Below, one piece after another: positions 1 to 15,555 of a DNA stretch of 64,000 nucleotides (position 1 is the stretch's first letter; the number at the start of each line of letters is the position of its first letter). Made by a program: the position numbers and the translations under genes. This DNA comes from an uncultured bacterium. GTDB taxonomy: Bacteria; Chloroflexota; Limnocylindria; QHBO01. Location of the stretch: the NCBI GenBank assembly GCA_965652075.1, contig CBFGTN010000004.1, forward strand, positions 6,775 through 70,774, in the 5' to 3' direction. The notes beneath the pieces were generated by a model. The model saw only the letters and a list, made by a program, of their open reading frames with translations, had not been told where the DNA came from and did not search any database.

Positions 1-202
1 CACCTGTCGCGCGCCGCGACCGATCTGCGGCCTCTGTCCGCTGACCGATGCGTGCGCCTACTACGTCCTCGCCGCGAAGGGCAAGGCGCCGATGGCGCCG
101 ATCCCGAGGGGTTCAGCCGCGGACGGCCCGCCGCGCTACCACGACGAGCTCATTCACGGCTGGATGCCCCCGGAGGCTAGGCCCGCAGATCCCGCCGGCT
201 GA
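1..202 (+). CDS. 3' end of an HhH-GPD base-excision glycosylase (endonuclease III / MutY family), 5'-truncated by the window edge
   Basis: Frame 2 translates ...TCRAPRPICGLCPLTDACAYYVLAAKGKAPMAP.... The Cx6Cx2Cx5C spacing matches the [4Fe-4S] cluster loop at Nth/MutY C-termini. Stop TGA at 200-202. Converges on and overlaps the permease stop by about 26 nt. Confidence 0.45.
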   Translation, partial: TCRAPRPICGLCPLTDACAYYVLAAKGKAPMAPIPRGSAADGPPRYHDELIHGWMPPEARPADPAG

Positions 203-1850
203 AGCCCCACGTCCCGATCGCCACGCCAACGATCGCGATCGCGAGCGAGGCGACGATGCCGACCGGATCCCACACGCCGACCATCGGCTGCCCGAAGTGC
301 GTGGTCAGCGCGAGATCCTGCACGACCTGGGGAAGGCCGATCAGTGGACCGAGCAGCTGGATGAACCAGGTCACGACGACGAAGACGACGACGGTGGTCG
401 CCGCGAACCGCATGCCGAGGACGCCGCCCACGGCATGGCCGATGCCCACCAGCGCGAGGCCGTAGAGGCCGAGCACCGCCGATCCGAGCAGCGGCGTGGC
501 GACGTCAGTGTCGGTGGTGGCGACGCCGATCCCGATGCCCGCCGCCGCGATCGCCAGGAAGATGGCGACGTTCACGAACATCCCGAGGCCGCCGGACAGT
601 GCCCAGCGAACGCGGCTCAGTGGCGTTGCGAGAAGCATCTCCGTTCGACCGGTGGTCTCATCGGATGCCCAGCCGCTGACGAACGACGCCGCGGCGAGGC
701 CGGCGAGGATCACGCCGAACTCGATGAACAGCAGCTGCAGGAAGCCACCCGCCGACCCGTAGTCGACGTCGGGGAACACCGTCGACAGCAGCTCGATGAA
801 CGCCGGCGAGTCCTGCAGCTGCTCCATGAAGCCGCTGGCCGCGCCGCCGAGCGCCAGGCCGAAGAAGCCGATGCCGATTCCCCATGCGAATGTCGCGCCC
901 AGGTTCGTGCTGATCGCGCGCCCGATCGGCCCGCCGAGCCCGAGCAGCGAACGCGGCAGCGACGGGGTGGGAAGCGCGGTCGTCACGCCGATGTCGCGGC
1001 GCGCGAACGCCTCGATGCCGATCGCCAGCAGGACCACGACGACGACGGCCACAAGGATCACGGAGGGCCAGTCGTACTGGCCGGCCAGCGCGATGTGGTT
1101 CGAGGTCCAGCCCCACCACGTCAGGTTGGCGAACGGCGCCAGCTCCGGCACCGCCGACTGGTAGCCGTTCAGGATGAAGCCGGCGAACGTGATCGCGCCG
1201 GCGATCCCGGCCGCGGCACCGCGCCCGACGAACGGGCCGAGGGCGAAGGCGATCGCGCCGCCGACGAGCGCCAGCAGGCCCAGCCAGACCGCGTAGGCGA
1301 ACGACGACAGGACGCTGATCTCGTCACCCGGCAGCACCGCGAACGCGTTGCCGGCGATCGCGATCGAGGCGAAGGCGACGACGACGGCCACGAACATCAT
1401 CAGGACGTGGGCGGACAGCTTCTCGACCGCGATCCGTCGACGTGACTTGCCCGTGGAGGCGATGAACTCGAGGCTGCCGCGCTGCGCCTCGCCGGCCAGC
1501 GTGCCGGAGAGGGCGAGGATCGACCACAGGCTCAGGACGAGCGGGAAGAAGACGCCGTACTTGTACTGGAGGTAACCGCCCAGCGTGCCGACGTCGACGA
1601 CCTTTCCGGCCAGTCCCTGGAGGATGGGCGGGACCGCGGCGATCAGCTCCTCGAGCTCGGTCCGTGATTGGGGCGTGTCGAACTCGGCGGTGATCGCGTA
1701 GCTGACGCCAAGGAACAGGAGACCGAGCCCGACGGCGGCGATGATCGTCGCGCGTCGAGAGTCGCGGATCGTCTTGGCGAAGATGCTGCCGAGGCCGTAG
1801 ACCCGGCTCCACGCCGACGGCCGGTCGGCGGTCGGGGTCGCGGCGGTCAT
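177..1850 (-). CDS. ABC-2 type transporter permease (multi-pass membrane protein)
   Basis: 557 aa, highly hydrophobic with many predicted TM helices. Its start overlaps the stop of the upstream ABC ATPase by 4 nt. Confidence 0.75.
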   Translation of the reverse strand: MTAATPTADRPSAWSRVYGLGSIFAKTIRDSRRATIIAAVGLGLLFLGVSYAITAEFDTPQSRTELEELIAAVPPILQGLAGKVVDVGTLGGYLQYKYGVFFPLVLSLWSILALSGTLAGEAQRGSLEFIASTGKSRRRIAVEKLSAHVLMMFVAVVVAFASIAIAGNAFAVLPGDEISVLSSFAYAVWLGLLALVGGAIAFALGPFVGRGAAAGIAGAITFAGFILNGYQSAVPELAPFANLTWWGWTSNHIALAGQYDWPSVILVAVVVVVLLAIGIEAFARRDIGVTTALPTPSLPRSLLGLGGPIGRAISTNLGATFAWGIGIGFFGLALGGAASGFMEQLQDSPAFIELLSTVFPDVDYGSAGGFLQLLFIEFGVILAGLAAASFVSGWASDETTGRTEMLLATPLSRVRWALSGGLGMFVNVAIFLAIAAAGIGIGVATTDTDVATPLLGSAVLGLYGLALVGIGHAVGGVLGMRFAATTVVVFVVVTWFIQLLGPLIGLPQVVQDLALTTHFGQPMVGVWDPVGIVASLAIAIVGVAIGTWGFSRRDLRA

Positions 1851-2758
1851 CGTGCGGCCTCCTCCGCGACCGCACCCTTGCCGTACTCGGCGAGGAACGT
1901 CTCCTCGAGCGACGGCTCGCGGCTCACGAAGTCGGCCAGCTCGTAGCGCGCGGCGGCGCGCACGACCGGCGCGATGCTGCCCGAGACGCGCATCCGCAGC
2001 GTGTGGTCCTCGGCGACGAGGTCCGAGACGCCGGGCAGCGCGCTGAACTCCTGCACCGGCACGGCATCGGCGAATCGGAGCTCCACCTGGTGGTGGGCCA
2101 GGTCGCGCAGCGCCTCGGTGCGGTCGACCCGAACGAGGCGGCCGTCGCGGATGATCGCCACCCGGTCGCAGGTCTTCTCGACCTCCGACAGGATGTGCGA
2201 CGACAGGAACACCGTTCGGCCCTCGGCCTTGGCGTCACGGATGACGCCGTAGAACACCTGCTGGATCAGCGGGTCGAGGCCGGATGTCGGCTCGTCCAGG
2301 AGGAGCAGGTCCGGCCGATGCTGGAGCGCGATGATCAGGCCGATCTTCTGCTTGTTGCCCTTCGAGTACTCGCGGAACTTCCGGGAGGGATCGACCTCGA
2401 GGCGGTCGACCAGGTCCTGCTGGTAGCTGGCGTCGACGCCGCCGCGGAGGTTCGCGAAGTACTCGAGCGTCTGGCCGCCGGTCAGCTTGTCGTAGAGGGT
2501 GAACTCGCCCGGCAGGTAGCCGAGGCGCCGATGGATGGCGACCGGATCGGCGGTCGTGTCGATGCCGAAGATCGTCGCCGTCCCGCTCGTCGGGCGGATG
2601 TGGTCCAGCAACGTGCGGATCGTCGTCGTCTTGCCGGCGCCGTTGGGCCCCAGGAAGCCGAAGGCCTCGCCCTCGTTCACGGTGAGGTCGACGTCGACGA
2701 TCCCGCGGTGGGGTCCGTAGGTCTTGGTCAGCTGATGGGTCTCGATCACCGCGGTCAC
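1847..2758 (-). CDS. ABC transporter ATP-binding protein
   Basis: Walker A GPNGAGKTT, ABC signature LSGGQ-like (YSKGNKQK), Walker B LLLLDEPTSGLD. Coupled on both sides by ATGA/4-nt overlaps. Confidence 0.9.
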   Translation of the reverse strand: MTAVIETHQLTKTYGPHRGIVDVDLTVNEGEAFGFLGPNGAGKTTTIRTLLDHIRPTSGTATIFGIDTTADPVAIHRRLGYLPGEFTLYDKLTGGQTLEYFANLRGGVDASYQQDLVDRLEVDPSRKFREYSKGNKQKIGLIIALQHRPDLLLLDEPTSGLDPLIQQVFYGVIRDAKAEGRTVFLSSHILSEVEKTCDRVAIIRDGRLVRVDRTEALRDLAHHQVELRFADAVPVQEFSALPGVSDLVAEDHTLRMRVSGSIAPVVRAAARYELADFVSREPSLEETFLAEYGKGAVAEEAAR

Positions 2759-3276
2759 GCGGTCACTTCCTTTCGTCTGCCGGTGCGCCGGGCGGCGCCA
2801 TCGGTCTCGGCTTCGGCGGCCTCGGTCTCATGCATGCGAGCCAGGATGGCCGGCCACTCGCGTTCGAAGAAGCCATACAGGTCACGGATGTCGCGCAGCC
2901 GCGCCTGCGATTCGAGCGGGCGGTCGGCGATGAGGGCGAGCCCCGCCTCGGCGACCTCACGGTTCTGCCGGAGACGGTCGATCGCGACCTCCATGAGCCG
3001 ATGGAGCGCGTCCGGGGGGATGTCGAAGTACTCGCGCCGATCTCCCGAGCGCGTCCGGCGGCGGATGAGGCCGATCTGCTCCAGGAGCCTCGCCATCCCG
3101 CTCACCGACCCGCGGCTGGCCTGCAGCCGCTCGGCGAGCATCGCGGCGGTCTGCTCGGGCGGGTCGCAGATCGCGAGGTAGGCCCAGATTCGCCCGGCCA
3201 TCGGCGGCATGCCGGCGCCGAAGACCCGCGCGGCCTCCTCGATGAAGCTGTCCTCGTCCGTGATGTGCACGGCCAT
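2755..3276 (-). CDS. MarR/GbsR-like winged-helix transcriptional regulator of the ABC exporter operon
   Basis: About 175 aa with an HTH-like segment (AGRIWAYLAICDPPEQTAAMLAERLQASRGSVSGMARLLEQIGLIRR). It is the first gene of the regulator-ATPase-permease operon. The tracked ORF starts at a TTG at 3306; the ATG at 3276 is the more likely start. Confidence 0.6.
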   Translation of the reverse strand: MAVHITDEDSFIEEAARVFGAGMPPMAGRIWAYLAICDPPEQTAAMLAERLQASRGSVSGMARLLEQIGLIRRRTRSGDRREYFDIPPDALHRLMEVAIDRLRQNREVAEAGLALIADRPLESQARLRDIRDLYGFFEREWPAILARMHETEAAEAETDGAARRTGRRKEVTA

Positions 3277-3297
3277 CAGCCTGCGCTCTTCTGTGCG

Positions 3298-3313
3298 TTC
3301 AGTCAATACTGAA
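3298..3313. promoter_or_regulatory. Perfect palindrome TTCAGT-caat-ACTGAA next to the regulator start, followed by a CTTGAGCG direct repeat; putative operator
   Basis: Read directly in a locally AT-richer stretch. It lies about 22 nt upstream of the ATG at 3276 (or overlaps the TTG at 3306). The direct repeat CTTGAGCG-aaa-CTTGAGCG is at about 3322-3340. Confidence 0.3.
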
Positions 3314-3392
3314 TCATCAATCTTGAGCGAAACTTGAGCGGCCGAGGGTCCTGTTTCGCCCTCCGGCGAGGTCGGCTAGAATCGGCCCTCGC

Positions 3393-3467
3393 GCCGAAGT
3401 AGCTCAGGGGTAGAGCAACGGTTTCGTAAACCGTCGGTCGTGGGTTCGAATCCCACCTTCGGCTCCA
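3393..3467 (+). tRNA. tRNA-Thr (anticodon CGT)
   Basis: GCCGAAGTAGCTCAGGGGTAGAGCAACGGTTTCGTAAACCGTCGGTCGTGGGTTCGAATCCCACCTTCGGCTCCA. It has a 7-bp acceptor stem (GCCGAAG/CTTCGGC), a D-arm GCTCAGGGGTAGAGC, the anticodon loop TTCGTAA, a T-loop GGTTCGAATCC and an encoded CCA. Confidence 0.85.
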
Positions 3468-3471
3468 GCGT

Positions 3472-5388
3472 TCATGAAGCTGGGGGCGGGATCGCACGCC
3501 AGGGCGGACACCCGAGTCCGAGCCACTCCTCGAGGCCGATGCCGCTCTGCTCCGTCACCCGAGCGGCGACCTCGCTGTCGTCGGGGATGCACGGGACCGC
3601 GATCTCGCCGGAGATGATCCGCGCGCGGAGGTCCTCGAGCACCGGGCGGAACTCGTCCAGGAAGCCACCGCTGTACGCGATGTCGACGAGGCCCGATTCC
3701 AGGCCGTAGACCCGGACGGCCGGGGGAACGTCGCCGGCGGCGGTGTGCTCCAGCGCCTCGTGCACCGCCACGTCGTACCGCTTCATGACCGAGGTGAGGA
3801 TGTGCTGCCGCCACCCCCTGGGCACGTAGTAGCCCAGCGGGCTCTGGGCCTCGAACCAGTCGGTGTCGACGCCGATCACCCAGAGCCGACGCTCCTCCGA
3901 CGACAGCTCCGCCGCCGCCTGGACGATCCCCACCCCCGCAGGACCGGTGGCGCCGAACACCACGTCTGCGCCGTTCGCGAACATGCCGTGCGCCAGGGCG
4001 TTCGCCTGGTCCGGACTCTTGAACACCGATGCATCGGGCCACTCGCCCGCCCACGCGCTCAGGATCGTCACGCCCGGATCGACTGCCCGGGCGCCGGCCT
4101 CGTAGCCCGCGAGGAAGCTCCAGATGCCGATGGCCTTCCAGGCGCCGATGAAGCCGATCGTCCCCGTCTCCGATCTCAGCGCCGCCGCGGCGCCCGCAAG
4201 GAACGACGCCTCTTGCTCGCGGAAGTACACGTACGACACGTTCGGCGCATCCCCGACGTAGTCGAAGACGAGGTAGTGCGTGTCAGGGTGCTCGCGCACC
4301 GCACCATCGATCGAGGAGAGGTGGAACACGACGGCGAGCGCCGGGTGATCGTCCGACGCCTCGCCGACCCTCTGGAACCACTCCATCCGGCGCCATTCCT
4401 CGATGGTGTCAACCTCGGGCACATCGAACTTCCATCCGGCAAGCCCGAAGTCGCTGACGGCGCGGTCGAACCCCCACTCGACGCCCAGCAGCTCGCCACC
4501 CTTTCCAGCCCCGAACGTGACCAGGGAGACGCTGTGTCGCAGGGCATGATCCCGGCCGCGTGCCGCCGCGGCGGCCGTCGGCTCCAGCAGGAGCGACGGG
4601 TCGTGGACCAGGATGCGGTCATAAACCGTTCGGATCCGCGGCGAGGGATCGACGCCAAGCTCATCGCCAAGGCGGATTCGAAGGTCATCGAAGGTGCGGA
4701 GGGCATCGGCGTGCCGCCCGGAGCGATAGAGGGCCAGCATGAGCAGCTCGCGCGATCGCTCGCGCAGGGGATCGTCCGCGACCGCGGCGTTCAGCAGGCC
4801 GACGACCTCGCCATGGTGGCCTGCCGCGAGCTCCGCGGCCGCCAGGAGCTCGACCGCGTCCAGGTGCGTCTCGTTCAGCCGCCGGATGTGGGGCTGGGCG
4901 AACTCCTCGTATGCGAACTCGGCGAGGGGAGGTCCCTGCCACACCGTCAGCGCCGTCTGGAGCGTCGCCGTTCCGCGCTCCGCGTCGCCCGACTCGAGCA
5001 GCCTGGCCCCATCGCGAACGAGCTGCTCGAACCGCCAGGCGTCGATCGAGGCGCGGTCGGCCTCCAGGACATACCCGGGTGGCCGGGTCACGATCACCTC
5101 GGATGCGCCGAGTGGCTCCAGCGCCCGGCGGAGGCCGGAGACGTAGATCTCGATCGAGTGCGGCGCCGTCCGCGGCGCGCGTTCGCCCCACAGCAGGTTG
5201 ATCAGCCGATCGACCGGCACGATCTGCCCGGCGTGCAGCAGCAGGATGGCGAGCAGGGCACGCTGCTTGGGTGGTCCGAGCTCGACCACCGTACTGTCGC
5301 CGACCGCCGCCAGTGATCCGAGGACTCGGAACTCCACACGCCCTCCCGTGCGCCCATCCACTCGCCGGCTCGATGCGCGGCCCGTCAA
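3472..5388 (-). CDS. SARP/AfsR-family regulator (OmpR-type wHTH + BTAD) fused to a C-terminal BMP/PnrA-like periplasmic-binding-protein ligand domain
   Basis: N-terminus: FRVLGSLAAV...KQRALLAILLLHAGQIVPVDRLINLLWGE (SARP DNA-binding), then a TPR-like BTAD region. C-terminal half (NVSYVYFREQEASFLAGAAAA...VVFGATGPAGVGIVQAAAE...) resembles the BMP-family nucleoside-binding fold. 1-nt spacing to the upstream gene. Confidence 0.7.
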   Translation of the reverse strand: MTGRASSRRVDGRTGGRVEFRVLGSLAAVGDSTVVELGPPKQRALLAILLLHAGQIVPVDRLINLLWGERAPRTAPHSIEIYVSGLRRALEPLGASEVIVTRPPGYVLEADRASIDAWRFEQLVRDGARLLESGDAERGTATLQTALTVWQGPPLAEFAYEEFAQPHIRRLNETHLDAVELLAAAELAAGHHGEVVGLLNAAVADDPLRERSRELLMLALYRSGRHADALRTFDDLRIRLGDELGVDPSPRIRTVYDRILVHDPSLLLEPTAAAAARGRDHALRHSVSLVTFGAGKGGELLGVEWGFDRAVSDFGLAGWKFDVPEVDTIEEWRRMEWFQRVGEASDDHPALAVVFHLSSIDGAVREHPDTHYLVFDYVGDAPNVSYVYFREQEASFLAGAAAALRSETGTIGFIGAWKAIGIWSFLAGYEAGARAVDPGVTILSAWAGEWPDASVFKSPDQANALAHGMFANGADVVFGATGPAGVGIVQAAAELSSEERRLWVIGVDTDWFEAQSPLGYYVPRGWRQHILTSVMKRYDVAVHEALEHTAAGDVPPAVRVYGLESGLVDIAYSGGFLDEFRPVLEDLRARIISGEIAVPCIPDDSEVAARVTEQSGIGLEEWLGLGCPPWRAIPPPAS

Positions 5389-5389
5389 T

Positions 5390-6517
5390 CTAGTCTGACG
5401 ATCCGACGACCTCTTGGCGGTCGGAACCCGGCCAGGTGTCCGACAGCAGGTAGCCCTCGGGGAACGGGTCGGTCGGGTCCAGCAGCACCTCGGTCACGCC
5501 GGTGATCCACGCCTGCCCGGTGATCGCCGGAACGATCGCGCGCTTCGCCCCCACCGTCGTCTCGGCACGTACGCGCCCCTCGAACACCGACCCGATCACC
5601 GAGCGATGGGCCATGGCATCGCCGACTCGCATCAGCCCGCGCTCGTGCAGCGTCGCCATTCGAGCCGAGAGCCCCGTCCCCGTTGCGGAGCGGTCGAGGC
5701 GGCCGGGGGCGACGACGACGGCATTCAGAGAGGCAGCACCGAGGCCCTGCCACGGGCCGGCGAACTCGACGATGCTCACGCCGGCGATGTCGGCGTTCTC
5801 GGGATGGCGACACTCGAGCTGCTCGCGAGCTGCCAGCCGTATCCGCTCGCCGAGCGCTGCCAGGTCCTTCGCCTCCGATGGATCCAGCGCGAGTCCGAGC
5901 GCCTGCGCGTCGACGATCGCGTACCACATCCCCCCGTAGGCGACGTCGACGCTGATCGTCCCCGTGCCGGGAACCTCGACTGGGGCGTCGAGGCGTTCGG
6001 CGAACGATGGAACGTTGTCGATCGTCACAGCGGTGACCTGCCCGCCGTCGCACGCCGCCTCGATGGCGACGGGCCCGCCCGGCGCCTCCAGCTGGAAGCG
6101 GCTGACCGGCGGCGTCATCGGGACGATGCCCGTCTCGAGCAGCACGGTGGCCACGCACATCGAGTTCGACCCGGACATCGCCGGATACTCGGTGGGCTCC
6201 ATGATCACGAACCCGGCCAGGCAGTCCGCACGGCTCGAGGCGACGACCAGGTTGGCGTGCTGGGCGACACTGCCTCGCGGCTCTCGAAGCAGGAGCCGCC
6301 GAAGCGCGTCATCCGAGCGCAGCTTGCCCATCACCTCGTATACCGATGCACCCGCCGGCGCCCTCACCCCGGCGACGACGACGAGCCCGACCTCGCCACC
6401 GGCATGGCACCCGACGACCAGGATGCGCTGACGTGCGCGCCGACGCGGAGGCCAGTCGGGATCGTCGACGAAGGCCAGGCTGCCGGCCGCGTCGGGAAAT
6501 CGTTCGTCCGACGCCAT
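5390..6517 (-). CDS. Proline racemase-family enzyme with a Cys/Thr catalytic pair (trans-3-hydroxy-L-proline dehydratase-like rather than a racemase)
   Basis: The first catalytic motif SNSMC keeps its Cys. The second motif reads DRSATGTGLSA, with Thr in place of the second catalytic Cys of DRSPCGTG racemases/epimerases. Confidence 0.8.
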   Translation of the reverse strand: MASDERFPDAAGSLAFVDDPDWPPRRRARQRILVVGCHAGGEVGLVVVAGVRAPAGASVYEVMGKLRSDDALRRLLLREPRGSVAQHANLVVASSRADCLAGFVIMEPTEYPAMSGSNSMCVATVLLETGIVPMTPPVSRFQLEAPGGPVAIEAACDGGQVTAVTIDNVPSFAERLDAPVEVPGTGTISVDVAYGGMWYAIVDAQALGLALDPSEAKDLAALGERIRLAAREQLECRHPENADIAGVSIVEFAGPWQGLGAASLNAVVVAPGRLDRSATGTGLSARMATLHERGLMRVGDAMAHRSVIGSVFEGRVRAETTVGAKRAIVPAITGQAWITGVTEVLLDPTDPFPEGYLLSDTWPGSDRQEVVGSSD

Positions 6518-6530
6518 CGCACGATCCCTC

Positions 6531-9035
6531 TCAGAGCGCGGCCACGGCGGCCTGGAGGCGGGTCGTGGCCTCGACGGGATCGGTGTCGAACGCGAACACG
6601 ATCGGCTCGCCGAAGATCACCTCCACGTCGCCGCGCATCGCCGTGCCGGGCCCGCGCTGGTCGATCCACGACATCCGGTGGATCTTCACCTTCATCGGCA
6701 CCACGGGGAGCGCGCCGTCGACCGCGATCAGGCCCGCGCCGGCCTTGAACGGCTTCATGGGGCCACCGACCGTGAGCTCGCCCTCGGGGAAGATCAATAC
6801 GCTGAAGTCGCGGTCGAGCCGCGCCCCGAGCAGCTCGAGCGAGCGACGGATCGCGCCCTCTCGCGCCAGCGGGAACGCATTGCCGATCACCGCCGCGCCC
6901 AGGCCGCGGATCGGGTTGCCGAAGATGTCATCCGCGGCCGCCGCGACAGACAGCCGCCAGCGCCAGGCCAGCGGCAGGTGGGTGAGGATGATGGCGTTGT
7001 CGGTGTGCAGATGGTGGTTCGGCGCGAAGATCACCGGGCCCTCGAGGCCCGCCAGATGGCGCTCGCCACGGATCCGAACCCGATAGAAGAGCCCGACGAA
7101 CGGCAGCACCAGCAGCTCCTGGATGCCGATGCCGAGCGCGCGCACCGCCGGATGGAGGGGCCATTCGAACGCGTCGTCACTCCGCTTTGCGTCTCGTGCG
7201 GCCTCGACCAGGCGCTCGAGGTCCGCCACGGACGCGTTCGGATCGAGCTGACCGTCGTCGATGAAGGCGCCCAGCTCCTCTTCGATCACGCTCAGCAGCT
7301 CGACGCGCCCCAGCGAGTCGAGCCCGAGGTCCGCCTCGAGCCGCGACTCGGGTCGGACCTGTGTCGACGGCACCTGGGCCACCTGCCCGACCAGCCCCGC
7401 GACCGTCGCCACGCCGGTCTGGACCGCCGTCGCAGCGGTTGCCGCCTGGTCCGGCGCAGCCTGCCCCCGCTCGCCCACGACTTCAGCAAGGCGATCGAGC
7501 ACGAGCCGCTTCTTCACCTTCAGCGACGGGGTGCGCGGGAAGTCCTCGTCGGGCCACACGGTCCACTCGCGGATCTGCTGATGACCGGCGAGTGCGGCGT
7601 TCGCGTCACGGACGATCTCGTCGGCCAGGTCCGGCTGGTCGAGGAGGAGGATGGCGTGAACGCGCGCTCCCGATCCGTCCCGCTCCAGGCCGACCACGGC
7701 GGCATCGCGGAGCCGCTCGTCGCGCAGGAGCGCCACCTCGATGTCGTCGGGGTAGACCTTCTGCCCGTCCGGCAGGGCGATCATGTCCTTCTTCCGGCCG
7801 CGCAGCGTGAGGTAGCCATCGGTGTCGAGCTCACCGATGTCGCCGGTGTGATACCAGCCATCCGCGTCGATCGCGGCGGCGGTCGCTTCGGCGTTCTGCC
7901 AGTACCCGACGAATCGGTTCGGGCCGCGAGCCAGCACCTCACCGTCCGGCGCGATGCGGATCTCCACGCCGGGGATCGCCTCGCCGACCGTTCCGACCCG
8001 GTTGCGGGCAGGCCGCGTGAAGCAGATCACCGGGCTCATCTCCGTCGCGCCGTAGCCCTGCAGGCACTGAATCCCCATCTCCTCCCACCAGTGCGCGAAC
8101 TCGGGCTCCAGCGCCGACGCGCCGACCGCGAAGGTCCGCAATCGACCGCCGAACTGCGAGAGGACCGGCCGGAACAGCAACCGGCGCACGAAACGAGGCA
8201 TCCGCGCCGCCAGGCGGTGCAGCTGGTCGAACCGGGTCCGCCTGCCCGACGCGTCGACCCGGCGCTCGATGGCGTTCCCGAGGAGGCGCAGGCCCTGCGG
8301 AACGATCAGCAGCATCGTGACCTTGAACTCTCGGAACGTCCGCACGAGCACGGCGGGCTGGCGGCTGACCGGGTAGACGACGGTCTTGCCGGCGGCCAGT
8401 GGGGCCAACAGGTCGCAGGTGAGCCCGAACATGTGCGACAGGGGGATGACCGACAGCAGTCGCTCGTCCGGCCCGAATGGGAACACATCGACGAGGGTGC
8501 GCGCGTTCGACGCCACGTTGCGGTGGCTGAGCATCACGCCCTTCGGATCGCCGGTCGTGCCGGAGGTGAACATGATGAGCAGGAGGTCATCCGGCCCAAC
8601 CTCAGCGGGTGGCAGAGGCTCGCGCACCGTCCGGGCGAGATCCGGAAGCGACTCGATGAGGATCGTCGGCACCGTGAGCCGCCCGGCGGCCGCCTGGGTC
8701 TGCCGCGATCCGAGGACGAGCCTTGGGTTGGTCTGCGAGATGACCTTGGCGGCGAACTCATCGGTGCTGCGGACGTCGAGGGGCACGCCGACAGCTCCGA
8801 CGTGCGCGACTGCCAGGAAGCCGACGACCCACTCGGGCCGGTTGACGGCCCAGAGCACGACGCGGTCGCCAGGCTGAACGCCGCGATCCGTCAGCACGCG
8901 CGCGACGCGGCCGACCTGCCGGTCGAGATCTCGGTAGCGCCACGTCCGCGTGCGGAACCCAGGCTTGATGAGCAGCGCGGGATGCCGGTCGAAGCGCTTG
9001 ATCGCCTCGCCGATCAGATCATTCAGCGTGTCCAT
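6531..9035 (-). CDS. Tridomain fusion: acyl-AMP/acyl-CoA ligase (AMP-binding) – acyl carrier domain – PlsC-type lysophospholipid acyltransferase
   Basis: N-terminal adenylation motifs (MFTSGTTGDPKGV, GYGATE, YHTGD). A phosphopantetheine-attachment motif LGLDSLGRVELL follows. The C-terminus carries the LPLAT motifs NHHLHTD (HX4D) and FPEG. Confidence 0.8.
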   Translation of the reverse strand: MDTLNDLIGEAIKRFDRHPALLIKPGFRTRTWRYRDLDRQVGRVARVLTDRGVQPGDRVVLWAVNRPEWVVGFLAVAHVGAVGVPLDVRSTDEFAAKVISQTNPRLVLGSRQTQAAAGRLTVPTILIESLPDLARTVREPLPPAEVGPDDLLLIMFTSGTTGDPKGVMLSHRNVASNARTLVDVFPFGPDERLLSVIPLSHMFGLTCDLLAPLAAGKTVVYPVSRQPAVLVRTFREFKVTMLLIVPQGLRLLGNAIERRVDASGRRTRFDQLHRLAARMPRFVRRLLFRPVLSQFGGRLRTFAVGASALEPEFAHWWEEMGIQCLQGYGATEMSPVICFTRPARNRVGTVGEAIPGVEIRIAPDGEVLARGPNRFVGYWQNAEATAAAIDADGWYHTGDIGELDTDGYLTLRGRKKDMIALPDGQKVYPDDIEVALLRDERLRDAAVVGLERDGSGARVHAILLLDQPDLADEIVRDANAALAGHQQIREWTVWPDEDFPRTPSLKVKKRLVLDRLAEVVGERGQAAPDQAATAATAVQTGVATVAGLVGQVAQVPSTQVRPESRLEADLGLDSLGRVELLSVIEEELGAFIDDGQLDPNASVADLERLVEAARDAKRSDDAFEWPLHPAVRALGIGIQELLVLPFVGLFYRVRIRGERHLAGLEGPVIFAPNHHLHTDNAIILTHLPLAWRWRLSVAAAADDIFGNPIRGLGAAVIGNAFPLAREGAIRRSLELLGARLDRDFSVLIFPEGELTVGGPMKPFKAGAGLIAVDGALPVVPMKVKIHRMSWIDQRGPGTAMRGDVEVIFGEPIVFAFDTDPVEATTRLQAAVAAL

Positions 9036-9087
9036 TGGGCGGATCCTCCGTCATCGCTGCCGCGGAAGGCCTGGCGGCGTCCCCTCG

Positions 9088-9774
9088 TCACCCGGCCGCT
9101 CGTGCGGCGAGCTCGCGCAGTGCGTCGTTCGGTCGGTCCCGCCAGGGCGGGTAGTGCGACAGGGCGATCAGGTCGACGTCGAGCTCCGTCAACCGGTCCA
9201 CGGACACCCGCGCCCCGGCGTGGTCATGGCTGAAGAAGGCGCTCGCGTAGGTCAGCCGGCCGCGGACGACCTGCAGCACGTCGCCGGTGAAGAGGATCCG
9301 CTGCCGCTCGAGATACAGGCAGATGCTTCCCGGCGTGTGCCCGGGGGTGTGGATGACCCGCAACCCGCCGAGGACTGGGACCAGCTCCCCGTCCTGGACC
9401 GTCGTGGGCTCGGTCGGCGCTCGGGTGAGGTACTGGATGATCCGGCCCCGGCGCTCGCCACGGGGCTCGGTCCGTGCAAGGGCCTCCCGCAACGGGCGTC
9501 GGAGCCCGGCGAGATCGTCCGGGTGGATGAGCACGATCACGTCCTCACGGTCGCGGACGATTTCCGACAGGCCACCGATGTGATCGGGATGACCGTGCGT
9601 GCAGACGATCCGCTCGAGCTCGTCGATGCGCCGGCCGATGCGTCGCAGGTACCGCAGCAGGGCCCGGCGCGACCCGACCATCCCGGCGTCGATGAGGGTC
9701 AGCCGCTCGTCGGCCAGGAGGAACGCATCGGCGCCCAGCATCCGCACCTGGTGGACGCCCGGGGCGATCTCCAT
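9088..9774 (-). CDS. MBL-fold metallo-hydrolase
   Basis: Carries the THGHPDHIGG (HxHxDH) metallo-beta-lactamase motif, plus downstream His and Asp ligand residues. Confidence 0.8.
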   Translation of the reverse strand: MEIAPGVHQVRMLGADAFLLADERLTLIDAGMVGSRRALLRYLRRIGRRIDELERIVCTHGHPDHIGGLSEIVRDREDVIVLIHPDDLAGLRRPLREALARTEPRGERRGRIIQYLTRAPTEPTTVQDGELVPVLGGLRVIHTPGHTPGSICLYLERQRILFTGDVLQVVRGRLTYASAFFSHDHAGARVSVDRLTELDVDLIALSHYPPWRDRPNDALRELAARAAG

Positions 9775-9794
9775 GGTGGCCGGGATTGTACGGC

Positions 9795-9826
9795 CGACGT
9801 CAGTGCGCGGGCCCGATCGTTGACGT
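9795..9826. promoter_or_regulatory. Inverted repeat GACGTCA-N18-TGACGTC in the divergent promoter region between the MBL hydrolase and the MFS–cNMP gene
   Basis: Perfect 7-bp arms read directly from the sequence. It sits between divergently transcribed genes, so it is a candidate operator (for example for a CRP/FNR-type regulator). Confidence 0.3.
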
Positions 9827-9881
9827 CCCTGCCGGCAAGTCCCTAGGCTCCGCCCACTGATTGGCGACGCTGGGGAGACCG

Positions 9882-11549
9882 ATGATCGCGCGACTCCGCG
9901 CTGACGCCGCGCGGTCCCTCGCCGCGTTCCGCGAGGCGATCGCGAACCCGGACATCCGCAACGTCGTCCTCACCGCGACCGCCTTCTTCTCCAGCCGATG
10001 GGCGTTGAACGTCAGCCTGTACGTGTACGCCTACCAGGTCGGCGGCGCCGGCTCGGTGGCCCTGATGGGCGTGATCCAGATGCTGCCGACGGTCCTCGCC
10101 GTCCCGGTCATCACCGGCATGGGCGACCAGTTCCGACGCCAGCGCGTTCTTGCCGTCATCTACGCCGGCGGCGCGGTGGCTGCCGTCTTCCTCGCGCTCG
10201 CATTCCAGGACACCGAGCACGCGGTGTGGGTGTTCATCCTCGCCGGCGTGTCCTCGGCCATCGGGGCCGCTGCCCGCCCGCTGCAGATGGCGCTCCTTCC
10301 GGCGTGTGCGAAGCGGCCCGGCGAGCTCATCGCCGCGAACGTCGTGTGCGGAGCGTCCGACGGCCTCGCCGCGATCTTCGGCCCGGCCGTGGCGGCGGTG
10401 ATTCTGGCCGTCGCTGGGCCCGAGGCCGTCGCCGTGGTCGTGGCCGTCACGCGAGGGGTCGCGGCGCTCTTCGTCATGCGCATCGGTGTGGCGCAGACCG
10501 TGGCGCCGCTCGCCGACCGGAGCTGGAAGCGTCCCGCCACCGTGTTCGGGGCCGCCGGGGACGGGCTGCGGGCGCTCGGGAGCCTGCCGGGTCCGCGGCT
10601 CCTCATCGGCGTGCTCTCGGTTCGGACCTTCGTGCGCGGGATGCTGATCGTCCTGCTGGTGGAGGCCGCGATCGCGGCCCTGCGAATGGGCGAGCCGGGG
10701 GTCGGCACGCTGAACGCGGCGATCGGCGTGGGCAGCGTGGTCGGCGGCATCTTCGCCCTCGGCCTCGTCAGCCAGCCGCGGCTTGCGCCGAGCCTGGCGC
10801 TCGGCCTCATCGGCCGCGGACTGCCGATCCTGCTGATCGGGATCTTCATGGACCCATTCGCCGCGATCGTGCTCCTCGCGATCTGCGGGCTCAGCAACTC
10901 GATCGTCGACACCTCGGCGTACACCCTGCTCCAGGGCACGGTGCCGGACCGGGTGCGGGCGGGGGTCCTTGGCGTCCTCGAGGCCGCGATCGGCCTGACG
11001 GTCGCGGCGGGTGAGATCACCGCACCGATCCTGCTCGATCGTCTCGGCGTCGAGGCGACATTCATCGTCGCCGGCGCCATCCTGCCCGTGGTCACGATCG
11101 GCCTCTGGCCCCTGCTGCGCCGTCTCGACGACCAGGTCCTCCCGCCGCGCGAGCTGCTGCGGCTGCTCAAGGGCGTCCCGATGTTCGAGCCGCTGTCGCT
11201 GGCGGTGATCGAGCAGCTGGCCGGCGGGATGCAGGTTGTCACATACGCGAAGGGCACCGAGATCATTCGCCAGGGAGAGGCGGGCGACGCGTTCTATCTC
11301 CTCATCGACGGGTCGGTCGAGGTGATCCGAGACGGAACCCACGTCGACGCCATCGGCGCCGGGGGGTCATTCGGCGAGGTGGCGCTCATCAGCGGAGAGC
11401 CGCGCAACGCGACCGTGCGCGCGACCGCGGACTGCCGCCTGTATCGGCTCGACGCCGCGACGTTCCTGTCGGCCGTGACCGGGAACCCCCACAGCCAGGC
11501 CGCCGCCGATCGCGTCGCCGGCGAGCGAGGGTGGGCCGGCCGAGCCTGA
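9882..11549 (+). CDS. MFS transporter fused to a C-terminal cyclic-nucleotide-binding (cNMP/CAP-effector) domain
   Basis: About 12 TM helices, then a cNMP-binding beta-roll (GEAGDAFYLLIDGSVEV...GAGGSFGEVALISGEPRNATVRA). Start taken at the ATG at 9882, downstream of the tracked TTG at 9861. Confidence 0.75.
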   Translation: MIARLRADAARSLAAFREAIANPDIRNVVLTATAFFSSRWALNVSLYVYAYQVGGAGSVALMGVIQMLPTVLAVPVITGMGDQFRRQRVLAVIYAGGAVAAVFLALAFQDTEHAVWVFILAGVSSAIGAAARPLQMALLPACAKRPGELIAANVVCGASDGLAAIFGPAVAAVILAVAGPEAVAVVVAVTRGVAALFVMRIGVAQTVAPLADRSWKRPATVFGAAGDGLRALGSLPGPRLLIGVLSVRTFVRGMLIVLLVEAAIAALRMGEPGVGTLNAAIGVGSVVGGIFALGLVSQPRLAPSLALGLIGRGLPILLIGIFMDPFAAIVLLAICGLSNSIVDTSAYTLLQGTVPDRVRAGVLGVLEAAIGLTVAAGEITAPILLDRLGVEATFIVAGAILPVVTIGLWPLLRRLDDQVLPPRELLRLLKGVPMFEPLSLAVIEQLAGGMQVVTYAKGTEIIRQGEAGDAFYLLIDGSVEVIRDGTHVDAIGAGGSFGEVALISGEPRNATVRATADCRLYRLDAATFLSAVTGNPHSQAAADRVAGERGWAGRA

Positions 11550-11556
11550 GCGCCCG

Positions 11557-12339
11557 CTACGGGGACGCTTCCAGCCGCTCCTGCAGATCCATGAGCGGCC
11601 GTTGGCTGACGTTGATCAGCCCGTCCTGCGGACGGTCGAGATCGACGACGAGCCACAGCACCGCGCCGAGCGAGATCGCCAGCGTGAAGGCGATGACCGG
11701 GCTCCGCTTGCGGGCGAGTCCCGCGTTGTAGCCGACCAGGCCGAGGCTCAGGATCACGCCGATCACGAGCAGCCAGAGGACCGTCGGCGGGACGCGCGCG
11801 TAGAGCGCGGCGACGAGCCGCGTCTCGTGCAGCTCGATGACCTCGTTCAGGCCCTCGACGTAGAGGGCGGTGACGTCGGATCCCTCGGTTCTCGCAACCT
11901 CCTCGGCAATCGTCCACAGCTCGGCCTGGATCGCCTCGGACCGGGCGATCGCGCCAGCGAGGTCGTCGGGGTCGGACGTGGCGATCCGGAGCGGAACGTA
12001 CTCGCGCAGGAGCGCCTGGGAGTCGGACGATGCCGGCTCGGACAGGTAGCCGGCCCTCAGGTACGTCGTGTAGATCGTGTTCGCCTCGTCCAGGACGAGC
12101 CCGCGGCGGTTGTCGAACCTGTCGGCCGCCATGCCCATCGCGATCGCGAGCAGGAAGGCCATGAGCCCCAGGATCGCGCCGACGATCAGGCCGCTGGCGC
12201 CGTCGTCGGCGTCCGGATCACGCCCCTTCTGCCGGTCGCCGAACCGATAGCCGACCTCGTACACCACGAGGTTGACCAGGACGAAGACCGCGACGAGGAT
12301 CCAGAGCGGGACCTGGTCGAGCGGCTGCTGCGTCGTCAC
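11557..12339 (-). CDS. Membrane protein, DUF4239/bestrophin-like family (hypothetical)
   Basis: 260 aa with an N-terminal TM pair and a C-terminal TM pair around a soluble core. The family assignment is from memory of the architecture only. Confidence 0.5.
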   Translation of the reverse strand: MTTQQPLDQVPLWILVAVFVLVNLVVYEVGYRFGDRQKGRDPDADDGASGLIVGAILGLMAFLLAIAMGMAADRFDNRRGLVLDEANTIYTTYLRAGYLSEPASSDSQALLREYVPLRIATSDPDDLAGAIARSEAIQAELWTIAEEVARTEGSDVTALYVEGLNEVIELHETRLVAALYARVPPTVLWLLVIGVILSLGLVGYNAGLARKRSPVIAFTLAISLGAVLWLVVDLDRPQDGLINVSQRPLMDLQERLEASP

Positions 12340-12345
12340 CGCGGG

Positions 12346-13485
12346 TTACCCGCTTGGCGGCGTTGTAGGGGGTGGACCGGCGGGAGGGGGTGGACCCGCC
12401 GAGGGTGGAGGCGTGCCAGGCGGCGGTGCGCCCGGAGGCAGATCCTCTGGCGGGATCGGCGGCTCGCCACCGGTCGCGTCGAGCTCGTCCTCATCGGCGT
12501 TCCGGTTCTGATACCAGACGTAGAAGATGGCGCCGCCCGCGGCAAGCACGGCGAGGATCGCGAGCCAGGGCAGCGGACCGGGGCCCTGATCGCCCGACTC
12601 ACCGCTTGCCGACGGCGACGGCTCGGGCGTCGGGCTCTCGGTGGCCGATGGCGATGCCGATGCCGTGACGCTTGTCGATGGGCTGGGACTCGGTGATGGG
12701 GTCGCCGTGGCGCTCGGCGAGGGGCTCGGCGTGGCACTGGGTGTCGGGCTCGGCGACGGCGTCGGGGTCGCCGTCGGTGTCGGGCTCGGTGACGGCGTTG
12801 GCGTCGCGGTCGGAGTCGGCGATGGGGTCGGGCTCGGCGAGGCCGTCGGCGATGGGGACGGCGTCGGCGTGGCCGTCGGCGATGGCGTCCCCGCCTCCGT
12901 TGGCGAGGGTGTGGGCGCGACACTCTCCGTCGCCGATGCGGTTGGGACCGGCTCCTCCGACGGCGAGATGGACGACCCGGCATCGCCGCACTCGAGCCGC
13001 GAGTCGCCGAGTGCGGCCATGAACGCATCGATCGCCTGGGCCGCGACTTCGACGTCGCCGAGCGCCTCCTCGACCGTCGCCGGGTCGCCCGAATCGATCG
13101 CGGCGCGCAGGTTCGACGCACCGATGGTGGTCGCGTCAAGCGCCGTCTGGAACGCCGCCTCGATGACGGGACCGACGTCCTCGGCGGCGTCGTCGAGGGC
13201 TGCCTGTCCGTCCGCAGCCGTCGACTCGAGGCCGTCGACGGCCTCGAGTGCCGACGCGTTCTCTGGCGTGCCGGTCTGGGCGACGAGGGCGGGGTCGAGG
13301 GCGAGCAGCTCGTCCAGATCGGCCTGGATCTGGACGGCATAGTCGAACAGAGCGCAGACCGCGTTCTCCGCCCGACCGCACGCGGTCAGGAGCGCCAGCG
13401 CCAGGGGCAGGACCAGGATCGCGAGGCGCGCTCGGGACGCTCCCTTCGGGGCGCGCGGAGTCGCGAGGCGCGGGTCAGGCGTCAC
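12346..13485 (-). CDS. Lipoprotein with a long Pro/Thr/Ser-rich linker, a C-terminal TM anchor and a Pro-rich cytoplasmic tail
   Basis: Signal peptide plus lipobox (LLTAC). The helical N-domain is followed by (PTPSPTPTA)n low complexity, then a TM helix and a PPPG-rich tail. Confidence 0.6.
12640..12990. repeat. Coding low-complexity tandem repeat (GGCGTCGGC/GTCGGG-type units) encoding PT/PS linkers
   Basis: Visible periodic gtcggcg/ggggtcgg units. On the minus strand it encodes the (S/T)P-rich linker of the lipoprotein. It is not a CRISPR array: no spacers, imperfect units, in-frame coding. Confidence 0.5.
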
Positions 13486-14546: not shown

Positions 14547-14565
14547 GCATCCCGATAATGCCCTC

Positions 14566-15495: not shown

Positions 15496-15555
15496 GGGGT
15501 CCGCGACCCGCGAGGGTCCGCGCTGTCGTCGGGCGTTGCGCTCCCGCGACGGGGC

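Follow-up and report, generated by a model that had tools for sequence, protein, structure and literature searches.

A Chloroflexota gene row with a hydrolase-tridomain acyltransferase pair, a proline-racemase-superfamily enzyme and a SARP regulator carrying a BMP-type domain as probably independent units

Escherichia coli Aas, a bifunctional 2-acyl-GPE acyltransferase and acyl-ACP synthetase, and the LplT-Aas fusions (PRK08043, PRK08633 and PRK06814) join an ANL adenylating domain to a PlsC-family acyltransferase that works on an acyl-carrier thioester. ACS, ACP and AGPAT-like domains also share one chain in ElbD of Myxococcus xanthus (ABF88003.1), a multidomain enzyme of ether-lipid biosynthesis, reviewed in PMC9131029 after Lorenzen et al. 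2014, and ElbD-like homologues without the reductase domain were noted there in other phyla. Among the proline-racemase-superfamily (PRS) enzymes, cluster 3 was described by Zhao et al. 2014 (eLife, PMC4113996), with t3HypD (B9K4G4, PDB 4K7G), 1TM0 and 4K8L as reference proteins; it is functionally heterogeneous, with dehydratase and epimerase activities mixed.

Here we describe a locus from an uncultured, Limnocylindria-like soil bacterium of the Chloroflexota in which relatives of all these systems stand head to tail with a SARP regulator. An MBL-fold hydrolase and a tridomain protein (adenylation, carrier and acyltransferase domains), a PRS enzyme, and a SARP fused to a BMP-type domain (SARP-BMP) most probably represent three functionally independent units, which are probably co-transcribed in this species. 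We regard them as neighbours and not as one pathway, because related genomes keep, lose and move each of them independently, loss being read at this very locus.

Layout and predicted transcription of the locus

In the window, i.e. the whole stretch of 64,000 nucleotides that was analysed, three consecutive minus-strand ORFs were confirmed for the tridomain protein, the PRS enzyme and the SARP-BMP regulator, the last one as a longest frame of 3472-5388 (Table 1). The region of these ORFs has a GC content of about 70%, with GC3 of 0.85-0.90. An actinomycete origin, to which the GC content and the SARP domain would point, was rejected, as source names led to Candidatus Limnocylindria. An MBL hydrolase had been placed just upstream of the tridomain gene, and it is present there, 52 nt before the tridomain start. 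The 13-nt gap given in the earlier note between the tridomain and PRS genes is real, with a GAGGGA Shine-Dalgarno sequence beginning immediately past the tridomain stop codon. The 1-nt gap given for PRS and SARP, on the other hand, was an artefact of taking the longest ORF with its TTG start. The start is most likely the GTG at 5337, which has GGGAGGG 5 nt upstream, leaves a gap of 52 nt and gives the 621-aa product called by gene callers in four assemblies.

Table 1 Features of the locus, with positions in the window
Feature	Position	Strand	Evidence
MarR-ABC block	177..3306	-	Pfam; synteny in L006-L008, L091-L093
ABC-2 permease	177-1850	-	Pfam
ABC ATPase	1847-2758	-	Pfam
MarR regulator	2755 to ~3270	-	Pfam
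tRNA-Thr(CGT)	3393..3467	+	ARAGORN on window and seven related loci; DNA alignment
SARP-BMP regulator, 621 aa from GTG 5337	3472..5337	-	Pfam, start site, AlphaFold/Foldseek
SARP-BMP, PnrA-like BMP fold (aa ~267-610)	~3508-4539	-	Pfam, PDB search, Foldseek
SARP-BMP, winged-helix and BTAD	4603-5337	-	Pfam
PRS enzyme, 375 aa	5390..6517	-	Pfam Pro_racemase E 7e-120; PDB matches
Tridomain protein, 834 aa	6531..9035	-	Pfam; invariant catalytic motifs
Tridomain, PlsC/LPLAT acyltransferase	6687-7082	-	Pfam
Tridomain, carrier domain, Ser574	7206-7406	-	Pfam
Tridomain, adenylation domain (aa 13-520)	7476-8999	-	Pfam
MBL-fold hydrolase, 228 aa	9088..9774	-	Pfam Lactamase_B E 2e-32
MFS transporter fused to cyclic-nucleotide-binding domain (MFS-cNMP)	9861..11549	+	Pfam MFS_1 and cNMP_binding

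The whole gene order recurs in four independent assemblies, thus it is not a chimera. Co-transcription of the three genes in this species is plausible, since the genes follow one another closely without terminator-like sites in between, and a deletion in a related genome (L091, described below) leaves the PRS gene behind the MBL promoter region. The tight packing (13 and 52 nt), the abutting Shine-Dalgarno sequence, the lack of a terminator-like site between the genes and the stable order therefore make co-expression likely, which could reflect a lineage-specific functional link. A promoter scan returned no promoter-like sites and a terminator scan returned only two terminator-like sites, at chance level and inside genes; both scans are uninformative for a Chloroflexota genome of 70% GC.

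Four nucleotides off the SARP-BMP stop codon, on the opposite strand, lies a tRNA-Thr(CGT) gene that was missed in the earlier note. It is a fixed landmark which separates a variable gene slot from the MarR-ABC genes, a conserved block past the tRNA in close relatives, and DNA alignment revealed a conserved palindrome, GTTCAGTATTGACTGAAC, upstream of MarR. We considered an integrative island at this tRNA and rejected it: the search for repeats of the tRNA-Thr 3′ end (up to 3 mismatches, within the window) found the tRNA alone, no integrase was seen, and the base composition is uniform across the window. At the other end of the row, the MFS-cNMP gene points away from the MBL gene, with 86 intergenic nt (9775-9860) between the two; alignment with the orthologue of L091, which is 87% identical, suggests that the MFS-cNMP gene starts near 9882.

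Separate retention and loss in related genomes

Neither a PRS gene nor a SARP-BMP gene was found within about 7 kb of any of the 24 tridomain loci in other genomes (0/24), Acidobacteriota included. Four syntenic relatives (L090-L093) carry the PRS gene without the tridomain and without SARP-BMP; in L090 the order is PRS, a RidA-family gene, the tRNA and MarR. In L091, PRS is intact and 84% identical to that of the window, and this relative lacks exactly the stretch corresponding to 9693-6542. The scar of this MBL-tridomain deletion joins the initial 81 nt of the MBL gene to the terminal 11 nt of the tridomain gene, with a 4-nt overlap; hence, the adjacency of MBL, tridomain and PRS must be older than a single species. 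L091 also lacks 5407-3468, which is the SARP-BMP gene, and PRS remains intact after the precise loss of MBL and tridomain throughout L091-L093. Other relatives (L006-L008) have SARP-BMP, the tRNA and the MarR-ABC genes, with PRS and tridomain absent, and SARP-BMP stands without both genes in L009 as well. In the relatives with PRS alone and in those with SARP-BMP alone, the neighbours are the same, tRNA-Thr and the MarR-ABC genes. The three units could thus be told apart with a handful of syntenic relatives and a single deletion scar.

Even if the three enzymes are unrelated, SARP-BMP might have been recruited in this species to activate the transcript of MBL, tridomain and PRS locally, or else the divergent MFS-cNMP gene, and the units would then be tied by regulation though not by metabolism. 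SARPs mostly act as cluster-situated activators (PMC10972967), the SARP-BMP gene closes the transcription unit of the enzymes at its 3′ end, and the MFS/MBL intergenic region holds a 16-nt imperfect palindrome together with an 11-nt repeat. SARP sites are direct repeats phased at 11 nt that overlap the -35 region of a target promoter. However, the DNA upstream of MBL yielded neither a conserved heptad nor a direct repeat in 11-nt phase, and the intergenic region is conserved in L091, which is without SARP-BMP at that locus. The sole 11-nt tandem repeat (2 copies, 3319-3340) lies upstream of MarR and was not taken for a SARP binding site, as it is not conserved in L006-L008. We consider such a recruitment unlikely.

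A single pathway is slightly harder still to defend. According to it, the four proteins would make a specialised lipid or lipo-amino acid, for instance an N-acyl or O-acyl (hydroxy)proline, and would be switched on by the terminal SARP. This is close to the earlier note, which read the three genes as a locus for a specialised lipid or lipo-amino acid that a ligand-responsive SARP controls; the count of 0/24 and the PRS-alone and SARP-BMP-alone syntenic relatives do not support this proposal. The arrangement itself speaks for one pathway, being on one strand with gaps of 52, 13 and 52 nt and no terminator-like sites and stable across the four assemblies; so does an MBL-tridomain-PRS adjacency that predates the L091 deletion, as may the conserved N-terminal extension of this PRS sub-clade. 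Nevertheless, PRS persists where MBL and tridomain were lost and in L090 has RidA as its sole companion, SARP-BMP is found in L006-L009 with neither gene beside it and is paired with small repeat proteins in other clades, and the PlsC domain of the tridomain protein retains a phosphate-binding-type motif (FPLAR, with Arg725 invariant among 16 homologues). LPLAT motifs of the FPLAR type are typical of glycerophosphate or lysophospholipid acceptors. One pathway is therefore improbable in our judgement, and three striking architectures in a row, even if they are probably co-transcribed, do not make one. The reading as three separate units is followed below for each of them.

The hydrolase-tridomain pair and the PRS enzyme

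Pfam placed AMP-binding (aa 13-379, E 2e-77), AMP-binding_C, PP-binding (544-610, E 1e-7) and Acyltransferase (PF01553, 652-783, E 4e-12) in the tridomain protein, which bears out two earlier statements, namely that adenylation, carrier and LPLAT domains are fused in a single 834-aa chain and that their order is the reverse of that in E. coli Aas, with an embedded carrier. The architecture was also thought to be unusual, which it is not, since the architecture search found at least 120 clusters at 90% identity. The ACP-AT half as query retrieved 188 clusters (E<=1e-30), with full-length tridomains making up 52 among the best 150. Invariant in 16 homologues are D573-S574-L575 in LGLDSLG, NHHLHTD (H674...D679) and FPEG (P750, E751, G752). 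Because the adenylation, carrier and acyltransferase motifs are intact, the protein looks like a plausible activate-and-transfer enzyme.

The acyltransferase domain has an Aas-type acyl-[ACP]--phospholipid O-acyltransferase as its best named match (E 8e-13), the carrier domain matches AcpP-type ACPs, and the adenylation domain matches acyl-CoA-synthetase-type ligases, with no FAAL structures among its best 60 PDB matches. The NCBIfam Aas cut-offs (886, 1221 and 1349 bits for PRK08043, PRK08633 and PRK06814) are far above the scores of the full protein (191 and 177 bits) and those of its ACP-AT half (47, 31.5 and 23.6 bits). The tridomain differs from Aas in its reversed order (AMP-binding, PP-binding, Acyltransferase) and in a carrier that is built in and not a separate AcpP; its family, which is populous but has no characterised member, is related to ElbD and Aas and was already on record in the literature. 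Most likely it would adenylate a fatty acid and load it on its own phosphopantetheine arm, and the PlsC-type domain would then use a lyso-lipid or glycerol-phosphate as acceptor of the acyl group. Such an enzyme could explain the incorporation or recycling of fatty acids without a free ACP in these abundant soil bacteria.

It is most improbable that the tridomain makes ether lipids and truly matches ElbD in function, instead of being an Aas-like ester-forming reacylation enzyme: although it shares the ACS, ACP and AGPAT-like domains of ElbD, reductase-less homologues are on record in other phyla (PMC9131029) and ElbD BLAST matches were reported in Chloroflexota and Acidobacteriota MAGs (PMC11868695), Pfam detected no reductase (FAR / NAD_binding_4) domain in it, neither the window nor any of the 24 tridomain loci has elbB-, elbC- or elbE-like neighbours, the best 150 relatives retrieved with the ACP-AT half all stay below an ElbD-like length (<=882 aa), and the acyltransferase activity of ElbD itself has not been demonstrated (PMC9131029). 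Set against ElbD by its description, the tridomain thus lacks both the FAR-like reductase and the neighbours of the elb operon.

In Chloroflexota, the tridomain is constantly accompanied by the MBL hydrolase, a gene named just in passing in the earlier note. It lies directly upstream, on the same strand, in all 12 Chloroflexota tridomain loci (12/12), in which the tridomains are 46-82% identical and the gap between the two genes ranges from 0 to about 70 nt, and we therefore regard the two as a conserved pair in this phylum. The Acidobacteriota tridomain stands without a partner, among unrelated neighbours (SOD, DNA ligase, BNR/sortilin and Ig-repeat proteins) that offer no clue to its function. 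By its sequence, the MBL protein is classed as a small glyoxalase-II/YcbL-like hydrolase, with small MBL hydrolases, including the hydroxyacylglutathione hydrolases 7l0b and 2xf4, as its closest PDB sequences; it would probably work with the tridomain as a thioester or ester hydrolase.

The idea that the MBL might be a phosphodiesterase arose from weak Apyc1 matches and from the neighbours with cNMP domains. A role as cyclic-nucleotide phosphodiesterase was not adopted, as the likeness to Apyc1 extends no further than the generic metal-binding segment at the N-terminus (E 6e-5, residues 13-74). An LplT-Aas analogy for the divergent transporter is no more than a weak hint: this protein matches EntS/MFS_3-type models, not LplT, and the MFS genes found near tridomain loci elsewhere are paralogues of only about 30% identity. 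The tridomain departs from LplT-Aas in two respects, since its conserved partner is an MBL hydrolase and not LplT, and the adjacent MFS of the window combines an EntS/MFS_3-like transporter with a cNMP domain.

As for the PRS enzyme, it aligns over its full length with PDB 4k8l, 1tm0 and 4k7g (E 1e-104 to 4e-95), and its Ser115, Asn118 and Thr279 correspond to Ser90, Asn93 and Thr256 of 4K7G; in enzymes of this type, the Asn at +3 positions the catalytic Ser. The dyad Ser115/Thr279 (codons 6173-6175 and 5681-5683) is conserved in relatives, the first catalytic position being Ser in all 12 that were aligned. A Cys/Thr dyad had been proposed for this enzyme; its Thr stands, but its first Cys does not, as that position is Ser115, while the Cys of SMCVA, six positions downstream, is conserved and non-catalytic. 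The resulting assignment to the hydroxyproline-dehydratase type rather than to the racemases holds as far as a dehydratase/epimerase type is meant, although it was reached through the wrong residue; a Cys/Thr-type trans-3-hydroxyproline dehydratase like human L3HYPDH does not agree with Ser115. Among the C/C, C/T and S/C subtypes named earlier, residue mapping to 4K7G points to the Ser/Thr type of cluster 3 and not to C/T.

Judging from these alignments, the enzyme belongs to the structurally characterised cluster 3 type. It shares MSGSN and DRSxTGTG with the cluster 3 reference proteins and differs from them by an added N-terminal extension of 30 aa, which is conserved in relatives. Since cluster 3 is heterogeneous, the enzyme may be a dehydratase or an epimerase; NCBIfam T3LHypDht gave the best score of all PRS models (434 bits), yet below its cut-off of 550. 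No Pyr2C reductase (OCD or MLD2), DAAO, DHDPS or transporter genes were found as PRS neighbours in window positions 1-20212 or in L090-L094; in L090, the RidA-family gene adjoins PRS. We thus see here an ordinary racemase-family gene, of a kind already described structurally and enzymatically, and its Ser/Thr-type product would form a unit functionally independent of its neighbours.

The SARP-BMP regulator compared with known SARPs and BMP proteins

The most novel piece of the locus is SARP-BMP, for which Pfam detected Trans_reg_C (E 7e-11), BTAD (E 1e-42) and Bmp (PF02608, E 5e-36). The Bmp match spans profile positions 80-299 of 301, the N-terminal 80 positions being too divergent for Pfam, and PDB sequence matches of this half include PnrA (E 3e-31), TmpC, BmpD and Med. 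In the AlphaFold model (pLDDT 76), Foldseek matched PnrA (TM 0.77) and TmpC (0.80), both target-normalised, as well as AfsR (0.85, with 40% identity) and EmbR, and the BMP fold is complete, with 341 alignment columns against a 328-aa target. A SARP with a C-terminal BMP/PnrA-type fold, as claimed earlier, is therefore well founded, while its supposed rarity is not: at least 120 clusters at 90% identity were found. In Chloroflexota metagenomes the fusion is abundant and takes two forms, a short one and a long one with a STAND domain.

The BMP domain is predicted to be cytoplasmic, because it is internal and has neither signal peptide nor lipobox. By analogy with LacI/PurR, the third unit would be a one-component SARP activator, whose DNA-binding/BTAD module may be controlled by this PnrA-like ligand-binding domain.

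Other SARP-BMP clades have small repeat proteins as partners instead of tridomain and PRS. In the metagenome neighbourhood scan, in which most contigs were 2-8 kb, conservation was confined to small ORFs immediately upstream, and the partner of the short form is a small membrane-anchored protein with 2-5 tandem GYPLHGGLAGPS repeats, which may supply the SARP-BMP signal or itself sense it. We tentatively propose, as a joint reading that is possible and still doubtful, that the MBL-tridomain pair acylates lipids as a module specific to Chloroflexota, with its carrier built in, and that SARP-BMP is an undescribed class of small-molecule-sensing SARPs beyond actinomycetes, with short wHTH-BTAD-BMP and long wHTH-BTAD-STAND ATPase-BMP forms, ancestrally working with the upstream small protein. 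If this is true, a large Chloroflexota family in which a PnrA-like sensor replaces the TPR would widen the view of SARPs as activators of actinomycete antibiotic pathways, and it would offer a tractable ligand-regulator pair.

SARP-BMP matches none of the published SARP classes that we found (small, medium, large and SARP-LAL, PMC10972967), and no BMP-type ABC permease genes adjoin it in the window. In contrast to known SARPs, it occurs in Chloroflexota and not in Actinomycetota, with no recognisable biosynthetic cluster adjoining. With the BMP family (S. pneumoniae PnrA 6YAG, T. pallidum TmpC 2FQW, B. burgdorferi BmpD 6SHU and B. halodurans Med 2HQB) it shares the whole type-I PBP fold and the conserved GVDxD, whereas the nucleoside-contacting DDKSFN is replaced by GVEWGFD; unlike the secreted BMP lipoproteins, which serve an ABC importer, it keeps the domain inside the chain, in the manner of LacI/PurR, in which a PBP fold is likewise fused to a DNA-binding domain. 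Its N-terminal winged-helix and BTAD are 36-41% identical to those of AfsR (8K60, 8HVR) and EmbR (2FEZ), and where SARPs of the AfsR/EmbR type have TPR, FHA or nothing, its sensor is a BMP/PnrA fold. In the long form, a STAND-type ATPase follows BTAD and precedes the C-terminal domain, which mirrors the layout of AfsR itself.

Gene order beside the tRNA-Thr gene

The region from 1 to 16000 of the window has a GC content of about 70%, and its coding frames were chosen by a third-position GC filter, which gave one frame per stretch. From the MFS transporter, the order continues through a metallo-beta-lactamase-fold hydrolase (MBL), an adenylation-carrier-PlsC acyltransferase tridomain protein, a proline racemase superfamily (PRS) enzyme and SARP-BMP (a winged helix and BTAD fused to a PnrA-like BMP domain) to the MarR-ABC genes. 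This order was also found in 3 ENA assemblies and 1 Logan assembly and therefore is not an assembly artefact. Close homologues carry source names that indicate Chloroflexota, class Candidatus Limnocylindria, rather than an actinomycete.

Features identified in the window and their coordinates
Feature	Position	Strand	Length
ABC-2 permease	177-1850	−	
ABC ATPase	1847-2758	−	
MarR	2755 to about 3270	−	
Perfect palindrome	about 3297-3314		
tRNA-Thr(CGT)	3393-3467	+	
SARP-BMP regulator	3472-5337	−	621 aa
PRS enzyme	5390-6517	−	375 aa
Tridomain protein	6531-9035	−	834 aa
MBL-fold hydrolase	9088-9774	−	228 aa
Imperfect palindrome	9796-9827		16 nt
MFS transporter fused to a cyclic-nucleotide-binding domain	9861-11549	+	
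ORF between FMN_dh and a bestrophin-like gene	12336-13485	−	334-379 aa
FMN-dependent dehydrogenase (FMN_dh)	13482-14933	−	483 aa in the ORF list

Pfam bore out the domain calls of the earlier note for the three ORFs of interest, which carry AMP-binding, AMP-binding_C, PP-binding and PF01553 acyltransferase domains (tridomain), Pro_racemase (E 7e-120) and Trans_reg_C, BTAD and Bmp (SARP-BMP), respectively. The 1-nt gap claimed between the last two, on the other hand, rests on a TTG opening the longest ORF. The GTG at 5337 has GGGAGGG 5 nt upstream and yields the same product length as in the gene callers and all homologues; with this start, the gap is therefore 52 nt.

The tRNA-Thr, which the earlier note had missed, lies on the opposite strand, its end separated by 4 nt from the stop codon of SARP-BMP. 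In seven related loci, the same tRNA is a fixed landmark that separates a variable gene slot from MarR-ABC. Neither a repeat of its 3′ end nor an integrase was found.

Between the tRNA and MarR, upstream of the latter, a palindrome (GTTCAGT-ATTG-ACTGAAC) was detected, which is also present in three SARP-BMP relatives (L006-L008) and is probably a MarR operator. This palindrome includes TTG 3306, with which the longest MarR ORF begins, and the real start of MarR is therefore further downstream. MFS and MBL diverge from an 86-nt intergenic region, which is conserved in the PRS relative L091 and contains the imperfect palindrome (GACGTCAGTGCGCGGG/CCCGATCGTTGACGTC). The ORF beside FMN_dh had no match in Pfam or NCBIfam, and an unannotated 347-374-aa gene occupies the equivalent position in L006 and L092. 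As for FMN_dh, its Pfam domain begins at residue 147 and its relatives have 349-363 aa; the gene probably starts about 130 codons after the first start codon of the ORF.

Gene partnerships in related genomes

A 228-230-aa MBL gene was identified immediately upstream of the tridomain gene, on the same strand, in all 12 loci from 5 metagenomic contigs (65-82% identity) and 7 named Chloroflexota MAG contigs (46-75%, one Dehalococcoidia), while the downstream gene differed in each and was usually convergent. No MBL was found within 7 kb in 12 further full-length tridomain loci (32-37% identity), mostly from Acidobacteriota with one from Chloroflexota, where the neighbours were unrelated genes. None of these 24 tridomain loci had a PRS or SARP-BMP gene.

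The other two genes were likewise found apart. In L006-L008 (SARP-BMP 79-85% identity), SARP-BMP is preceded by a small ORF and followed by the same tRNA-Thr, MarR, ABC and ABC-2, with neither PRS nor tridomain; in L009 (58%), the neighbours differ. The PRS relatives L091-L093 (84% identity) showed the MFS-cyclic nucleotide fusion, PRS, tRNA-Thr and MarR-ABC, and lacked both MBL-tridomain and SARP-BMP. L090 (80%) has PRS, a RidA-family gene and then tRNA-Thr and MarR, and L094 (71%) has PRS at another place.

DNA comparison revealed that L091 lacks exactly 9693-6542 and 5407-3468 of the window. At the first breakpoint, the first 81 nt of MBL run into the final 11 nt of the tridomain gene, with 4 nt shared between the two, leaving a 28-codon remnant ORF (L091 6901-6987, shared with L092 and L093) directly before the intact PRS gene, whose unchanged Shine-Dalgarno sequence and start directly follow the junction. 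This junction is a deletion scar, and the MBL-tridomain-PRS order was therefore already present in the common ancestor. MBL-tridomain was removed later in the L091 lineage, and the intact PRS gene was left downstream of the former MBL promoter region, which supports co-transcription and shows that PRS is retained without the tridomain gene at the same locus.

Thus, for each of the three genes, there are close relatives that have it intact at this chromosomal position but lack the other two there, and MBL with the tridomain is the sole invariant partnership. This is strong evidence against a shared pathway, although not absolute, as L091-type genomes might keep an MBL-tridomain copy elsewhere. 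The single specialised-lipid locus under a ligand-responsive SARP proposed in the earlier note is unsupported; the three genes are probably neighbours that are transcribed together, in a slot next to tRNA-Thr that is prone to rearrangement.

The SARP-BMP regulator and the PRS enzyme

In a Foldseek search of the SARP-BMP AlphaFold model (mean pLDDT 76), the N-terminal half matched AfsR (TM 0.85, 40% identity) and EmbR. The C-terminal half matched PnrA, TmpC, BmpD, Lbp, RfuA, AtzT and Med along the full length of each of these proteins (TM 0.70-0.80), and the BMP-like reading of this domain therefore withstood the comparison. The GVDxD segment is kept, and the N-terminal nucleoside-contact stretch has diverged. 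The fusion, thought rare at first, proved common, with at least 70 short-form clusters in addition to a long form (about 1060-1086 aa) in which a STAND/AAA_16 ATPase sits between BTAD and BMP; the metagenome sample had 18 short-form versus 34 long-form loci. The SARP classes listed in a 2024 review are small, medium (NB-ARC), large (NB-ARC and TPR) and SARP-LAL; a PBP fold occurs in none of them (PMC10972967). A conserved SARP-BMP operator was searched for and none was found. SARP-BMP is a real but uncharacterised variant of a known architecture.

Small proteins recur beside these genes. In the 58-60% identity clade, one with an N-terminal transmembrane helix and 2-5 tandem copies of GYPLHGGLAGPS is encoded about 140 nt upstream of short-form genes (L009 7615-7836; L095, L097, L100-L102, L104, L109, L112, L114, L144, L146 and L164); it matched no Pfam family, and the window does not encode it. 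Another small transmembrane protein, which repeats a motif of its own (DRLNGLA), occurs in L008. Long-form genes are accompanied by a conserved protein (about 150 aa) that has a signal peptide and conserved cysteines and likewise lacks a Pfam match (L121, L130, L132, L139, L142, L145, L147-L149, L152 and L161), directly upstream in nine loci and placed elsewhere in L130, L148 and L149.

The best PDB matches of the PRS enzyme were 4K8L, 1TM0 and 4K7G (E 1e-104 to 4e-95), all of which contain MSGSNS and DRSPTGTG. In 4K7G (B9K4G4, cluster 3), the catalytic Ser90 is positioned by Asn93, and Thr256 replaces the second Cys (Zhao et al. 2014, PMC4113996). Allowing for a 22-residue tag offset, their counterparts are Ser115, Asn118 and Thr279, and the Ser/Thr dyad was invariant in 12 relatives. 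Hence, of the Cys/Thr dyad read earlier, Thr stands, but the first position is Ser115; the supposed Cys (SMCVA) lies six residues past it, and 4K7G has the same Cys. The enzyme is of the cluster-3 type, an already described kind, and this cluster is functionally mixed, with dehydratases and 3- or 4-hydroxyproline epimerases (Zhao et al. 2014, PMC4113996). The RidA-family (Ribonuc_L-PSP) gene directly after PRS in L090 (8195-8548) would fit an enamine/imine-forming hydroxyproline dehydratase.

The tridomain protein and its MBL partner

All three tridomain modules look active, because TSGTTGxPKG (P-loop-like), the carrier Asp-Ser-Leu (Ser574) and the acyltransferase H674-x4-D679, Arg725 and P750-E751-G752 were invariant in an alignment of 16 homologues (63-81% identity). 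The adenylation domain is akin to the acyl-/dicarboxyl-CoA synthetases MatB, oxalyl-CoA ligase, FadD13, FadD5 and 4CL in the PDB, with no fatty acyl-AMP ligase among the best 60 matches. The carrier resembles fatty-acid-synthesis ACPs. For the acyltransferase, the best named match was the corresponding segment of Aas-type acyl-[ACP]--phospholipid O-acyltransferases; AGPAT came next, and the two scored far under the family cut-offs. MBL is closest to small glyoxalase-II/YcbL-type hydrolases and may act as a thioesterase or esterase.

MFS transporters with a C-terminal cyclic-nucleotide-binding domain adjoin MBL-tridomain in 3 arrangements, in the window and in the tridomain loci L003 (8500-10128) and L005 (6531-8168), the window copy being only about 30% identical to the other two. 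The surroundings of L003 and L005 also contain a Crp-type regulator, a GAF protein and a 1175-aa adenylate/guanylate cyclase. A cyclic-nucleotide link to the tridomain protein is possible.

The tridomain family is large, with at least 120 clusters at 90% identity. At E<=1e-30, the ACP-acyltransferase half matched 188 clusters, counted as 50%-identity representatives; among the best 150, 52 were 805-882 aa long with the match at their C-terminus.

Judging from its domains, the protein would first adenylate an acyl substrate, then form a thioester on its own phosphopantetheine arm and finally move the acyl group onto a phosphate-bearing lyso-lipid or glycerol phosphate. The E. coli acyltransferase/acyl-ACP synthetase Aas follows the same logic, from which the tridomain protein differs by its built-in carrier. 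It is also comparable to the Myxococcus xanthus ether-lipid enzyme ElbD minus the reductase; ElbD-like proteins without this domain are on record in other phyla (PMC9131029), and FAAL-like fusions to lysophospholipid acyltransferases have been noted in the literature. The tridomain protein and its MBL partner are a real but uncharacterised variant of a known architecture.
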